Source of the DNA: Longimicrobiales bacterium
Lineage (GTDB): Bacteria > Gemmatimonadota > Gemmatimonadetes > Longimicrobiales > RSA9
DNA: 64,000 nucleotides
Reading direction: 5' to 3'
NCBI GenBank assembly: GCA_035512635.1
Contig: DATKDR010000098.1
Coordinates: 26,273 to 90,272, forward strand
The position numbers and the translations under genes were made by a program. Below, piece by piece: positions 6,180 to 38,386 of this stretch. The stretch's first letter is position 1; every line of letters begins with the position of its first letter. Under the pieces are notes generated by a model. It did not search any database. It was not told where the DNA came from and saw nothing but the letters and a program-made list of their open reading frames with translations.

Positions 6180-6228
6180 GAGCCCAGAGCCTAGAGCCCA
6201 GAGCCTAGAGCCTAGAGCCTAGAGCCCC
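6180..6228. repeat. heptamer tandem array H1 (GAGCCYA x7)
   Basis: Read unit by unit: gagccca gagccta gagccca gagccta gagccta gagccta gagcccc. It ends just upstream of an AAGAGGA Shine-Dalgarno-like motif preceding the ATG at 6240. Confidence 0.9.
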
Positions 6229-6239
6229 AAAAGAGGACC

Positions 6240-6824
6240 ATGGACTACCCACTGACACTGACGTTCAAGATCATCGCGATCTCGCCGCAGATGGCGGTGA
6301 CCGACGCGGCCGACAAGCTCGTCTTCTACGTGCGGCAGAAGGCGTTCAAGCTGCGCGAGCAGGTGACCGTGTTCGGCGACCGGGAGCAGACGCGGCCCGT
6401 CGCCTACATCAAGGCGGATCGCATCCTGGACATCTCGGCGACGTACGGCTTCGAGGACCCGCAGGGCCGCCGCTTCGGCGCCGTTAAGCGCGCGGGCATG
6501 AAGTCGATCTGGCGCGCTTACTACGAGGTGCTGCGCGGCGACGAGACGCTGTTCACGATCCGCGAGGACAACGCGCTGGTGAAGTTCCTGGACGGGGTGC
6601 TGTACCAGATCCCGATCCTGGGCGCGCTGTCCGGCTACGTGTTCCACCCCTCGTACACGGTCGCGCGCCCCGACGGCACGCACGTGCTCGCCATCCGCAA
6701 GCAGCCGGCGATGTGGGAGGGGCGCTTCACCATCGAGAAGGCGTCCGAGCTGACGCCGGACGAGGAGGCACTCGCCAGTCTCAGCATCCTGATGATGGTC
6801 ATGCTGGAGCGAGCGCGCGGGTAG
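6240..6824 (+). CDS. conserved hypothetical, LURP-one-related / tubby C-terminal-like (tentative)
   Basis: 194 aa with good G/C third-position bias. MDYPLTLTFKI..YVRQKAFKLREQVTVF..IKADRILDISATY resembles the bacterial LURP1/DUF567-type pattern. AAGAGGA RBS. Confidence 0.55.
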   Translation: MDYPLTLTFKIIAISPQMAVTDAADKLVFYVRQKAFKLREQVTVFGDREQTRPVAYIKADRILDISATYGFEDPQGRRFGAVKRAGMKSIWRAYYEVLRGDETLFTIREDNALVKFLDGVLYQIPILGALSGYVFHPSYTVARPDGTHVLAIRKQPAMWEGRFTIEKASELTPDEEALASLSILMMVMLERARG

Positions 6825-6826
6825 GG

Positions 6827-6868
6827 CCGGATATCTCGTATCCGGTATCCGGTATCCGGTATACGGTT
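6827..6868. repeat. heptamer tandem array H2 (TCCGGTA core)
   Basis: ccggata tctcgta tccggta tccggta tccggta tacggtt, starting 3 nt after the stop codon at 6822-6824. Confidence 0.85.
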
Positions 6869-6898
6869 AGGGTAACTACGCTGAACTGGACTAGCGGC

Positions 6899-7444
6899 AT
6901 GAGCCGATCCGCGACGCCGGCCCGCTGGTTCGCGTTCCTGCGCGCGATCAACGTCGGCGGACACACGGTGAAGATGGAGCGTCTGGCCGCCCTCTTTCGG
7001 GAGCTCGGGCTGGAAGACGTCGAGACGTTCATCGCGAGCGGCAACGTCGTCTTCCAATCGACGGAGAAGGACCCCGCGAAGCTCGAGCGCCGCCTCGAGG
7101 CGCATCTGGGCGAGGCGCTCGGCTACGACGTCGCCACCTTCCTGCGCACGCGCGCGGAGCTGGCCGCGATCGCGGGCAGGCACCCCTTCGGTGAGGAGCC
7201 CGGCGGCACCGTGTACGTCGGCTTCCTCGAGCGCGCGCCGGACGCGGCCGCCGCCCGGGCGCTCAGCGCGCTCGGCAACGAGGTGGACGAATTCGCGGTC
7301 GTCGGTCGCGAGGTCCACTGGCTGGCCAGGAAAGGCATGGGCAGGTCCACGTTCTCGGGCGCTAGGCTGGAGCGCATGCTCGGCATGGCCACCACGCTTC
7401 GGAATCTGAACACGGTCGCCCGTCTTCTGGCGCGCCATGACTGA
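6899..7444 (+). CDS. DUF1697 family protein
   Basis: From the ATG at 6899: WFAFLRAINVGGHTVKMERLAALFRELGLEDVETFIASGNVVF, the hallmark DUF1697 N-terminus. Confidence 0.75.
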   Translation: MSRSATPARWFAFLRAINVGGHTVKMERLAALFRELGLEDVETFIASGNVVFQSTEKDPAKLERRLEAHLGEALGYDVATFLRTRAELAAIAGRHPFGEEPGGTVYVGFLERAPDAAAARALSALGNEVDEFAVVGREVHWLARKGMGRSTFSGARLERMLGMATTLRNLNTVARLLARHD

Positions 7445-35709: not shown

Positions 35710-35710
35710 C

Positions 35711-37600
35711 ATGAGCTTCAGCCTGTCGACAACGCTCGAACCCCGGAAAATCCTCTTTCTGGGGGTGTTCTTCGGCCTCTCGTGGCTCGCGGCGCTGGTG
35801 GAGACGTCGGAGCAGAGTCCGCCGCGGCTGGACCTGCTCGAGCAGTCCACTGCGGCGAGCGGCGCGGCCGGCGCGCAGACCGGGCTCGCGGCCGAGCCCG
35901 CGGAAGACATCTGCGACATGCGCCCGGGTACTCGCGCGGTATGTTTCCAGCGCGTCGCCGCCGAATACAACATCCTGCGCAGCGGCGACGTCATGGTGAC
36001 GGAGAGCCTGACGGTTCGCTTCGCCGGCCAGTGGAACGGCGTCGAGCGGACGCTGCGCGAGCGCGCGACGGCGCACGACCTGCGACCCGCGAGCGAGCGT
36101 GACGGAGCCGCGAGCACCGGCTACCGCCACGTCGACATCGATGTGCTCGGCGCGACGGATGCCGCCGGCAACGAGCTGCGTACGGAAACGGAAGCGAACG
36201 GCAACGCGATCGCCGTCCGCGTGTGGGTGCCAGGCGCGAACAACGTCACGCGCACCGTCGTGCTGCGCTATCGCATCTCGGACGGCGTCACCTTCTTCCA
36301 CGAGCACGACGAGTTCTACTGGAACGTGTGGGGCAGCGAGTCCACCGCGCGCGTCGCCGGTGTGACTACGCGCATCATTCCGCCGGAAGGCACGACGGGG
36401 CTGCGGACGACTGCGTTCGCGGGCGCCGCGGGATCGGCGGAGCGCAACGCCGTGGCGCGGATCGAAGGCCCGGTCGCCGTGGCCTCGACCACGGCGCCGC
36501 TCGGACCCGGCCTCGGCTTCACGGTCGCGGTGGGCTGGGATGCGGGCATCGTCGAGCGTCCGGCCCCGACCGAAGCTCTGTTCGACTGGCTCAGACTCTA
36601 CGGGAGCTTCGCGCTGCCGTTCCTGGCGCTGGGCATCATGTGGTCGATGTGGAAGCGACGCGGGAAGGATCCGGCGATGCTGCCGATCGTGACGCGCTAC
36701 CAGCCGCCGACGGATCTGACGCCCGGCGAGGTCGGCACGCTGCTCGACGAGCGCGCCGATATGCGCGACGTGACGGCGACGCTCGTCGACCTCGCCGTGC
36801 ACGGCCATCTCCGTATCGAGGAGACGGAGGGAAGGAAGATCCTCGGCATGGAATTCGGCGAGGATTACCGCTTCGTGCGGGTCACGCAGCTCGGCGCCGG
36901 CCCGACGCGCAGCCACGAGCTGATGCTGATGAACGCGCTCTTCCGCGGCCGCGATCAGGTGGACCTCTCCGACCTGAAGAACGAGTTCTACAAGGACCTG
37001 CCGGACATCCGCGAGGCGATGATGGACAGTCTCACGGCGCATGGCGTCTACACGCGTCGGCCCGATCGCATACGTGGCGGGTGGGTGGTGGGTGCGTTCC
37101 TCTCCCTTTTCGTCGTCTCACCCGCGCTGGTGGCAGCGCACGCGGCGCTCGTGGCGATCATGATGGTGCCCGTGCTGACCGCGCTGCCGATCGGGATCTT
37201 CGGCTGGCTCATGCCCGCACGGACCGTGAAGGGCACGCGGATCATCGAGCGTCTGCGCGGCTTCCGCGAGTTCCTGAGCCGCGTCGACGGCGACCGCCTG
37301 CGACGCATGAAGATCGATCCATCGGATTTCGAGCGAATCCTCCCCTTCGCCATGGCGATGAGCGTGGAGAAGCAGTGGGGCGAGGCGTTCGAGGGGCTCG
37401 CGCAGGAGCCGCCGCGCTGGTACCACTCCACCAGCGGCGGGCGCTTTCATCCCGGCCTCTTCGCCTCCAATCTGAGCCGCATGTCGACCGCGACCGCGCA
37501 GACCATGGTGTCGGCGCCCGGGGGCTCCGGAGGCTCGGGTTTCGGCGGCGGCGGCAGCGTCGGCGGAGGCGGAGGCGGAGGCGGTGGCGGCGGCTTCTGA
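35711..37600 (+). CDS. DUF2207 membrane protein (LemA partner)
   Basis: Typical architecture: N-terminal extracytoplasmic domain, several TM helices, and a Gly-rich tail GGSGGSGFGGGGSVGGGGGGGGGGGF. Starts 2 nt after lemA. Confidence 0.8.
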   Translation: MSFSLSTTLEPRKILFLGVFFGLSWLAALVETSEQSPPRLDLLEQSTAASGAAGAQTGLAAEPAEDICDMRPGTRAVCFQRVAAEYNILRSGDVMVTESLTVRFAGQWNGVERTLRERATAHDLRPASERDGAASTGYRHVDIDVLGATDAAGNELRTETEANGNAIAVRVWVPGANNVTRTVVLRYRISDGVTFFHEHDEFYWNVWGSESTARVAGVTTRIIPPEGTTGLRTTAFAGAAGSAERNAVARIEGPVAVASTTAPLGPGLGFTVAVGWDAGIVERPAPTEALFDWLRLYGSFALPFLALGIMWSMWKRRGKDPAMLPIVTRYQPPTDLTPGEVGTLLDERADMRDVTATLVDLAVHGHLRIEETEGRKILGMEFGEDYRFVRVTQLGAGPTRSHELMLMNALFRGRDQVDLSDLKNEFYKDLPDIREAMMDSLTAHGVYTRRPDRIRGGWVVGAFLSLFVVSPALVAAHAALVAIMMVPVLTALPIGIFGWLMPARTVKGTRIIERLRGFREFLSRVDGDRLRRMKIDPSDFERILPFAMAMSVEKQWGEAFEGLAQEPPRWYHSTSGGRFHPGLFASNLSRMSTATAQTMVSAPGGSGGSGFGGGGSVGGGGGGGGGGGF

Positions 37601-37681
37601 CGGCGGCGGGACCCCTGGAACCTGTATGTATGGAGGGGTAGGAACCGCCGAACGTTCCGGACTCGAACCACGCGGAGGAAT

Positions 37682-38251
37682 GTGCAGCCCGTAGTCGTCG
37701 TCACCTATCCACACGCGCTCGATCTCAAGGTCGAGCGGCTGGAGCACACGAGCCTGCCGGACCAGTCCACGGGCCTCGCGTACTATTACCGTGGTGGGCT
37801 GATCGCGCGCGGTGTCGTGAGCGATGAGGCGGTCGAGTCGATCCAGTCGCTGGTGAACGATCCGGTACACCTCGCGCTCGCCGCGCAGGAGGACGACGAC
37901 GGCAACATCGACGGCCGGCTGTGTCTGGTCCTGCCGGTGGAGCTCGGCAAGGAGCTCATGAAGGACGACGACGCGGAGCCCGAGGAGGCGTGGAAGTCGA
38001 GCGTGCCCGCGCCGCCCGCCGAGATCGACAGCTACGGCTCGCAGAAGCGCGACACCGCCGATGAGCCGGAGGAGGGCGAGCAGCCGCACATCGCGCTGCT
38101 GCCCATCGGCAACATCGTGCGCAGCAGCGAAGCCCGTAACCATCCCGACGACGTCTCCGCCGACGCGCGCGAGATGCTCGTCAACCTGCTCGCCGGACAG
38201 GGGCAGGATTCCGTGCGCAAGGCGATCGACGACCTGCTCGACTCGATCTGA
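37682..38251 (+). CDS. hypothetical acidic protein
   Basis: GTG at 37682 after GGAGGA. 189 aa, Asp/Glu-rich, with coding-like third-position bias. No family recognised. Confidence 0.55.
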   Translation: MQPVVVVTYPHALDLKVERLEHTSLPDQSTGLAYYYRGGLIARGVVSDEAVESIQSLVNDPVHLALAAQEDDDGNIDGRLCLVLPVELGKELMKDDDAEPEEAWKSSVPAPPAEIDSYGSQKRDTADEPEEGEQPHIALLPIGNIVRSSEARNHPDDVSADAREMLVNLLAGQGQDSVRKAIDDLLDSI

Positions 38252-38253
38252 AT

Positions 38254-38386
38254 GCGGTAGCCAGTAGTCGGTAGTCGGTAGCCGGTAGTCGGTAACGCGC
38301 CGGATACCGGATACCGGATACCGAATACTGGATACCGGATACCGGATACCGGATACCGGATACCGAATACTGGATACCCGATACCC
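38254..38386. repeat. heptamer array H8, two-arm (YCGGTAG)x6 then (GATACCG)n with AATACTG variants, 19 units
   Basis: Parsed in one register. Begins 3 nt after the stop at 38249-38251. Same unit families and arm order as H3. Confidence 0.9.

Follow-up and report, generated by a model that had tools for sequence, protein, structure and literature searches.

The window analysed here is a stretch of 64,000 nt (contig DATKDR010000098.1) from a Longimicrobiales metagenome-assembled genome (MAG; phylum Gemmatimonadota) of an uncultured soil bacterium, and our subject is a set of eight heptanucleotide and two pentanucleotide tandem arrays lying between its genes. The window is ~70% GC, its SucA is 100% identical to a protein named as that of a Longimicrobiales MAG, and Pfam scans of its proteins return ordinary chromosomal genes (TrpD/E, an M49 peptidase, an EF-G-like protein, Ddl, MutS, SucA, LemA, DUF2207, UDG, PriA and CarB), with no transposase or RAYT among the ~50 genes; mutS lies at 27846–30536. 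Non-coding DNA, as delimited by a gene map based on third-position GC content (GC3) and open reading frames (ORFs), amounts to ~4.3 kb of 63.4 kb (~7% of the window). Neither Rfam (gathering thresholds) nor a search of the entire window for tRNA and tmRNA gave matches, so the arrays are not known RNA families.

Tandem arrays in the gaps between genes

Tandem Repeats Finder (TRF) recovered period-7 arrays at all eight coordinates listed in a preliminary description of this DNA, as well as both pentamer loci. That these are beyond chance is supported by a strict lag-7 test (≥25 of 28 positions matching), which found six segments in the window; 50 simulations with a third-order Markov model gave none, and the same type of test at periods 2–4 returned zero segments in the window. 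Cutting the eight intervals into 7-mers gives 7, 6, 11, 19, 13, 12, ~5 and 19 units, the same values as reported before, although these copy numbers derive from a short-read MAG and may be underestimates.

We number the heptamer arrays A1 to A8 along the window and call the pentamer arrays P1 and P2. A1 (6180–6228; TRF 6180–6227, GAGCCTA x6.7) consists of (GAGCCYA)x7 in a single orientation; the gene before it encodes the M49 peptidase (stop 6117), and the ATG of a hypothetical gene follows 12 nt after the array, at 6240. A2 (6827–6868), characterised by TRF (6838–6867, GTATCCG x4.3), unit parsing, folding and Pfam, comprises CCGGATA, a spacer and (TCCGGTA)x3 in a short hairpin; it begins 2 nt past a TAG (6822–24) and ends 30 nt before the start of a DUF1697 gene (6899). 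A3 (10956–11032) is bipartite, (GGTAGTC)x3, GGTCGAC, (CGGATAC)x5, which TRF reads as GTAGTCG x3.3 (10957–10979) followed by ACCGGAT x5.7 (10982–11021), and it occupies an entire 60-bp convergent gap, with the TAG of the plus-strand gene (10965–67) in its left arm and the stop of the minus-strand gene at 11028–30. A4 (20499–20631) has 19 GGnnnCC units (GGATCC-, GGTATCC-, GGTAGCC- and GGAATCC-like; TRF 20499–20517 and 20535–20632, the second part with 14 copies), ends 4 nt from the stop of the minus-strand EF-G-like gene (20636–38) and lies ~230 nt upstream of the next minus-strand gene.

The next three heptamer arrays lie around sucA and LemA. A5 (31709–31800), again bipartite, runs (CTAGGCT)x5, loop, (TAGNGCC)x5–6 (TRF 31709–31742, CTAGGCT x4.9 with 100% matches, and 31759–31800, with 5% indels); its first unit holds the TAG of an Rv2525c-like gene (31710–12) and its end is 65 nt before the sucA GTG at 31866. 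A6 (34667–34750; TRF 34692–34749, period 7) reads CGGTAGA, CCGTAGG, CCGTGAA, (ACGGTAT)x4, (ACCGATT)x4, includes the sucA TGA (34677–79) and ends 15 nt before the ATG of a 60-aa gene (34766). A7 (35071–35107) is a short, weak array of (CGTATAC)x3–4 with a palindromic end (TRF 35071–35098, score 35, 71% matches), which is built on a conserved motif, ATACTGYCTACSGT, and sits 50 nt upstream of the LemA start (35158). Further along, A8 (38254–38386; TRF 38255–38294 and 38300–38385, the latter CCGGATA x12.3) is bipartite, (CGGTAGY)x6, loop, (CCGGATA)x12, begins 2 nt past a TGA (38249–51) and ends 14 nt before the TTG of a UDG-family gene (38401). The two pentamer arrays, which TRF places at the same coordinates, are P1 (26214–26368), a bipartite (AGGTG)x6.6 followed by CCTCA/CACCT units arranged as a 24-nt higher-order repeat (x3.7), between the stop of a minus-strand PALP gene (26381) and the next minus-strand gene, and P2 (42464–42493), (AGGTG)x6 in the sense of the minus-strand genes, directly after the TGA of a class-I tRNA synthetase gene and ending 17 nt before a DUF2911 ATG (42446). 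Every P2 repeat recreates a Shine-Dalgarno-like GAGGTGA and a TGA.

All ten arrays fall in non-coding DNA, where they sum to 832 bp or ~19% of the total. Of the 24 gaps that are 40 bp or longer, 10 hold an array; by type these are 9 of the 19 tandem gaps, one of the two convergent gaps and none of the three divergent gaps. Seven of the ten hold the stop codon of the upstream gene or sit within 5 nt of it; the others begin 12 nt (P1), 62 nt (A1) and 122 nt (A7) past it, so the earlier statement that most arrays start 0–10 nt from a stop stands as a tendency and fails for A1. ORF ends and the sequence itself bear out the three stop codons placed inside arrays before (10965–67, 31710–12 and 34677–79). 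On the downstream side, the arrays end 12–65 nt before the next start, which leaves space for a ribosome-binding site. We also looked for dispersed single units that could serve as seeds, and found the unit cores elsewhere in the window at or below chance.

The units themselves had been sorted into three families, which reduce to two groups, CGGTA-NN / NN-TACCG (GGTAGTC, GGTATCC, GGTAGCC, GGTAGAC and ACGGTAT) and CTAGGCT / GAGCCTA. Likewise, the strict 7-nt register claimed for every array holds generally, but is broken once, by +1 nt, within 31759–31800, and has no meaning across a change of orientation as the two arms differ in unit. A remark that three units (21 bp) equal two helical turns found no echo in the analysis, as nothing in it bears on helical phasing. 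A G-quadruplex would call for a tract of three or more G per unit in at least four units; unit parsing gives a longest G run of 2 in any unit, so this structure is impossible here. Two other repeats of the window lie in coding sequence. (CGG)x17 at 37543–37594 forms the 3′ end of the DUF2207 gene and encodes a poly-glycine tail, GGGGSVGGGGGGGGGGGF*, and overlapping 21-, 24- and 27-nt repeats at 15828–15973 in a caspase/TPR gene are low-complexity coding sequence unrelated to the heptamer arrays.

Turnover in relatives and a scan across phyla

Sequences of the same species were sought, but the assembly index has no record of the window proteins, including the exact SucA, and SucA is alone in its cluster. 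Comparison was made with other species. The gene order Rv2525c-like, sucA, 60-aa gene, LemA, DUF2207, 189-aa gene, UDG is kept in four relatives, L003, L004 and L125 (78% SucA identity to the window) and L001 (73%). Two further Longimicrobiales loci, L126 and L127 (63%), have no heptamer arrays in 23 kb each. In the gap after sucA, where the window has its 12-unit array, L004 carries a bipartite array that is also of 12 units but different; decayed remnants are left in L003 and L125, and the L001 gap is a compact 45 bp with no array. A canonical terminator, GGCCGTG...CACGGCTTTTT (also given as GGCCGTG...CACGGCTTTTTCGTT), lies downstream of sucA in L004 (~2724–2760), L003 (~10045–10085) and L125 (~6497–6530). 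As these relatives keep a separate terminator downstream, the array is not the terminator there.

The gap upstream of LemA gives a view of how such an array begins. Four species share the motif ATACTGYCTACSGT ~60–85 nt before the start of LemA (window 35078–35100; L003 ~10472–10496; L004 3131–3170; L125 ~6868–6890), within a spacer that is otherwise not alignable. Adjoining it, a heptamer (motif TATACTGTCTAC) stands as a single copy in L125 and as arrays of 3.6 copies in L003 and 5.7 in L004, the array having arisen from the 3′ side of the motif. At the level of sequence comparison, this series shows in-place growth from a pre-existing single-copy seed. The TATACT in the region of the motif resembles a -10 box.

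Presence and absence vary at other gaps as well. In L003 the space from the LemA stop to the DUF2207 ATG is taken up exactly by a 5-unit array; the window has only TGACATG at this point, and the L004 gap orthologous to that of P2 is 28 bp long and carries no array. This gap also lacks AGGTG, and Shine-Dalgarno seeding of P2 was rejected on this ground. L125 has AGGTG x4.4 at 2583–2605, so the pentamer family is common to the clade. Array load is thus a trait of the sublineage, individual arrays are dispensable and, judged by these alignments, arrays are gained, remodelled and lost quickly between species. At the UDG-family gene that follows A8, the N-terminus from the apparent start TTG 38401 is conserved with L004, the 14 nt after the array contain no recognisable Shine-Dalgarno sequence, and L004 has GGGAGG at the position equivalent to window 38386–38401.

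The preliminary description had also held that arrays keep out of coding sequence except for the last few codons of a gene. This is the case for the arrays it listed, all of which are intergenic, but TRF (32051–32082), alignment and translation place a run of degenerate plus-strand heptamers (CCGGATA CCGGCTA CCAGCTA GCGGGTA CCGCGTA ...) at 32040–32090, within the hypervariable N-terminal linker of SucA, where it is translated in frame as PPDTGYQLAGTAYPD. L003 has CCGGACG x6.6 at the homologous place (7366–7420), and it appears that repeats of the intergenic type can spread into a disordered protein linker. In L004, the contig starts within this same linker, where the window and L003 have heptamer-like repeats, and the linker repeat may have broken its short-read assembly.

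A scan for CGGTANN x4 in one genome per species extends these observations beyond the order; the matches listed comprise at least 118 loci, and all scan results given here are among those matches. They include at least 14 loci in Gemmatimonadota, as well as Chloroflexota, Acidobacteriota, Actinomycetota (including Streptomyces), Planctomycetota, Bacteroidota, cyanobacteria and Proteobacteria. When further arrays lacking the searched core were counted by period, 74 had period 7, 13 period 8, 6 period 6 and none period 5, and the units of these further period-7 arrays are unrelated. The NN of CGGTA-NN is broadly spread (AT 17, CT 17, GA 16, GC 15, etc.), which rules out a universal heptamer across phyla. 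A reverse-complement partner within 200 bp accompanies 52 of 261 arrays, compared with a same-strand partner for 7, a number that the tendency of TRF to merge same-strand neighbours may lower. We took array ends as touching a gene end if the stop lies within the array or precedes it by ≤10 nt; for these, the stop-containing strand is sense in 58 cases and antisense in 6, or 42 to 6 if each locus is counted once and the window and its relatives are left out. With the stop 12–40 nt away there is no orientation bias (15 versus 11).

These data bear on two explanations raised before. In the first, the arrays would be slippage-driven contingency (phase-variation) loci, or else artefacts of assembly. 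Instability is inherent to tandem repeats, and in this short-read MAG the two longest arrays both measure 133 bp, near the k-mer and read length. A contingency locus, however, has its repeat in the 5′ coding region or promoter spacer of a gene for a surface, restriction-modification or virulence function, whose expression is switched by the copy number, and the arrays of the window lie 3′ of housekeeping genes (sucA, EF-G, LemA, UDG) and in none of the three divergent gaps. As for an artefact, L003 and L004 are independent assemblies of other samples and have comparable arrays at the syntenic sites, and the listed matches include records titled complete genome or chromosome and contigs of 0.7–1.3 Mb, which rules out a short-read artefact. 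We regard this explanation, in either form, as scarcely credible.

The second explanation has the arrays as platforms for a sequence-specific DNA- or RNA-binding protein, such as a global regulator or nucleoid protein, that reads CGGTA or CTAGGC cores at 7-nt spacing. Core positions are indeed conserved while one or two vary (CGGTA-NN, TAG-N-GCC), and binding roles have been proposed for TAACTGA repeats (PMC4679880) and for Nostoc heptamers. Against this, one genome holds several unrelated unit families, both orientations occur in the same transcriptional context, the units differ at orthologous sites between relatives with 78% SucA identity, and other phyla keep period 7 while the unit is free. 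With units that differ by locus, strand and relative, and a period that dominates regardless of unit, a specific binder is very improbable.

Mirror-image arms and RNA folding

Five loci (A3, A4, A5, A8 and P1) share a bipartite layout, in which a run of units is followed by a short loop and a run of the near reverse complement. Folded as RNA, they reach -48 to -79 kcal/mol, with z scores against shuffled sequences of -3.4 to -6.8 (A3, -48.3 kcal/mol, z -4.6; A4, -69 kcal/mol, z -3.4; A5, -57.5 kcal/mol, z -4.5; A8, -67.7 kcal/mol, z -4.2; P1, -79 kcal/mol, z -6.8), which makes the 3′-end hairpins suggested earlier possible at several arrays. The stems of A3, A4, A5 and A8 are built of 6-bp helices split by a mismatch at every seventh position; that of A8 consists of seven 6-bp helices with 1x1 mismatches between them. 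The remaining arrays have no fold (A1, z -1.7; P2) or weak folds (A2, A7 and A6, z -2.35).

The arms of a bipartite array are independent of each other. The left arm of A5 is 100% homogeneous, its right arm has one variable position in each unit, and the arms of A8 are unequal, with 6 and 12 units. Folding is about as good on either strand, and the transcribed strand shows no surplus of G-U pairs, which makes the symmetry a property of the DNA.

The bipartite arrays could be 3′-end RNA hairpins maintained by selection, which would terminate transcription independently of a U-tract or would block 3′ exonucleases in the manner of repetitive extragenic palindromes (REPs); the repeats would then be no more than the way in which this lineage builds and lengthens such hairpins. 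The five loci fold far better than shuffled sequences, A3 and its counterpart on a metagenome contig (L123) fill convergent gaps stop to stop, and divergent gaps, which hold promoters only, are avoided. Promoter and terminator consensus scans flagged none of the arrays and found no canonical terminator at any array-bearing gap in the window, where T runs after the arrays, as in an intrinsic terminator, are also lacking, and the sucA terminator of L003, L004 and L125 is missing here. In addition, the pair CCAGUA:UACUGG in the A8 stem looks compensatory. Several observations speak against selection on the RNA: half of the arrays fold weakly or not at all, the arrays of L004 stand upstream of canonical terminators and so are not needed for termination there, and some orthologous gaps in relatives lack an array altogether. 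The arms are unequal and diverge independently. Selection on the transcribed strand would be expected to give better folding or more G-U pairs there, and neither strand asymmetry nor such a G-U bias is seen; compensatory-looking variants are also expected from fold-back copying. Selected hairpins as the explanation of the arrays are therefore possible but doubtful.

A3 and A8 raise a different question, as they are paralogous: both read (GGTAGTC)n-loop-(CGGATAC)x3-CGAATAC-(C/T)GGATAC, with the variant units in the same order. A (GGTAGTC)n-loop-(GGATACC)n composite also occurs in two metagenome contigs, L123 and L124, which share only the array with the window and have no gene similarity or synteny to it. 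This would fit arrays as small hairpin elements built of heptamers and dispersed by mobility or recombination, similar to REPs, REPINs or miniature inverted-repeat transposable elements, and the use of few unit families at many loci within one genome fits such elements. Conserved termini or target-site duplications were not found at A3 and A8, however, nor is a transposase or RAYT gene encoded in the window; single units are not scattered elsewhere in it, the exact composite is rare (2 matches in the whole metagenome collection), and the progression from seed to short to longer array at one orthologous site is that of growth in place. We consider dispersal as the general origin of the arrays quite unlikely.

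Origin of the arrays and comparison with known systems

The arrays are probably expansion-prone heptanucleotide (plus two pentanucleotide) long simple-sequence repeats (SSRs), of the same class as the arrays of Xanthomonas, Geobacter and cyanobacteria. The steps proposed below (slippage, evasion of mismatch repair and template switching) are inferred, like any effect on RNA. A 7-nt segment of spacer, very often holding or following a stop codon, would be duplicated by replication slippage and then expand. In E. coli, MutS-type mismatch repair fails to act on loops of 5 nt or more, and heptamer loops would evade it likewise in this host, whose MutS is encoded in the window, where the test at periods 2–4 found no SSRs. 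Expansion would be tolerated only where it is harmless, from stop codons up to the ribosome-binding site of the next gene. Sense units bearing a stop could overlap a gene end, as any frame would be closed within three units, and a duplication that contains the stop would be neutral for the protein, which would explain both the anchoring and the orientation rule.

The mirror arms would need one more step. Fold-back copying, that is, intramolecular template switching, occurs in quasipalindrome mutagenesis, and could add the reverse-complement arm, after which each arm would expand and homogenise separately and so give long hairpins with a mismatch at every seventh position; the compensatory-looking CCAGUA:UACUGG of A8 would be explained in the same way. 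The gain, remodelling and loss of arrays would take place over the time in which species diverge. Once transcribed, the hairpins may well act as 3′-end stem-loops, most plausibly at A3, as a secondary by-product.

Several points weigh against this account. Escape from mismatch repair does not explain the sharp preference for 7 over 5, 6 or 8, nor does independent local seeding explain why few unit families recur across many loci; even on the earlier count, only three serve eight loci. The composite shared by A3 and A8 is not explained by independent local seeding and needs dispersal or ectopic gene conversion. The hairpins may have taken over a real function, given that the window has lost the sucA terminator, with an array there reaching to within 15 nt of the next start codon, and has no canonical terminator at its arrays. 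For copy-number instability the evidence, again from sequence, consists of comparisons between species, and the gene maps, also those behind the orientation tally, are crude GC3/ORF calls, so the tallies need confirmation.

A bolder reading is that the arrays form a polar, stop-anchored element class found across phyla, made by a mechanism that is specific for 7 nt and indifferent to the unit, and serving as three-frame stop pads with a 3′ hairpin. The 58:6 sense rule and the period-7 peak would then be signatures of that mechanism. We think this unlikely, and return to expansion-prone SSRs as the account we prefer. Heptanucleotide arrays are among the most abundant unexplained repeats of free-living bacteria, and three regularities emerge for them: period 7 is kept while the unit is free, about one fifth of arrays form mirror pairs, and arrays at gene ends carry the stop in sense. 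If these hold genome-wide, they would constrain models of origin and favour stop seeding and fold-back copying over specific binding. In practice, such arrays break short-read assemblies, confuse start and stop calls and creep into protein linkers, as in sucA.

The resemblance to known repeats is closest for other SSRs. REP, BIME and REPIN sequences are likewise extragenic, often just 3′ of genes, hairpin-forming and present at many sites per genome, and REPs close to stop codons affect the expression of the upstream gene. A REP, however, is a fixed imperfect palindrome of ~20–40 nt mobilised by a RAYT, whereas the hairpin arms of the window are 7-nt arrays of variable copy number and none of the window genes encodes a RAYT or transposase. 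The tandem heptanucleotides known as STRR in heterocystous cyanobacteria, reportedly described by Mazel et al. in 1990 as intergenic, of few families and without known function, have units such as CCCCAGT and a low-GC cyanobacterial host; here the host belongs to Longimicrobiales and the units are CGGTA-NN and CTAGGCT, not STRR1–3. In Nostoc, few paired inverted arrays have been reported (PMC4692102).

The TAACTGA repeats of Beggiatoaceae, cyanobacteria and Bacteroidetes, which have a patchy distribution (MacGregor 2015; PMC4679880), are also intergenic heptamer arrays with stop codons in the forward orientation, and these stops limit the overlap of arrays with gene ends (PMC4679880). They differ in having one unit, mostly 2–6 copies, a position just upstream of starts, almost no inverted pairs and no predicted RNA structure, while the arrays of the window have other units, are mostly stop-anchored and end 12–65 nt before the next start. 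Geobacter metallireducens, another GC-rich non-cyanobacterium with tandem heptamers at many loci, has GGACCGG x4 at 49 sites and MTYCTGA x5, annotated as putative regulatory elements (PMC2700814); these have fixed copy numbers of 4–5, occur in genic as well as intergenic positions and have no reported stop anchoring.

The nearest counterpart is found in Xanthomonas (~65% GC), with 186 GGGAATC heptamer arrays (Rehm et al. 2015; PMC4692102). Most lie between co-oriented ORFs, 0–50 bp from a stop or overlapping it, and few in divergent gaps; 70–75 inverted pairs can form stem-loops, and array positions are shared between species while length and sequence vary (PMC4692102). As relayed by that paper, a 2007 survey (Mrazek, Guo & Shah) found heptamers over-represented among the long SSRs of many non-pathogen genomes and attributed this to a general tendency to expand, possibly by polymerase slippage, and not to a specific function. 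The survey, of units of 5–11 bp, predates Gemmatimonadota genomes and, as far as we know it through this account, does not describe mirror-arm hairpins or stop anchoring. No detailed study of heptanucleotide arrays goes beyond a few genera (PMC4692102). Together with Geobacter and the many high-GC phyla of our scan, Xanthomonas provides the precedent that the preliminary description had not been aware of for a high-GC non-cyanobacterial genome.

The arrays of the window agree with the GGGAATC and GGGGAYT SSRs of Xanthomonas and Nostoc, which occupy dozens to hundreds of intergenic loci (PMC4692102), in their conserved unit core with one or two free positions and their intergenic, stop-proximal placement, and with Xanthomonas in a high-GC non-cyanobacterial host. 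More broadly, they share with long SSRs and STRR-like repeats the tandem 7-nt units, the few families at many intergenic loci and the variation between genomes at the same site. Unlike Xanthomonas, the window has units without G-tracts, several unit families in place of one, a host in the phylum Gemmatimonadota and a density of ~1 array per 6–8 kb compared with ~1 per 27 kb. New here are the phylum and the local density, together with the clean 6+1 bulged form of the hairpins and the orientation rule across phyla.

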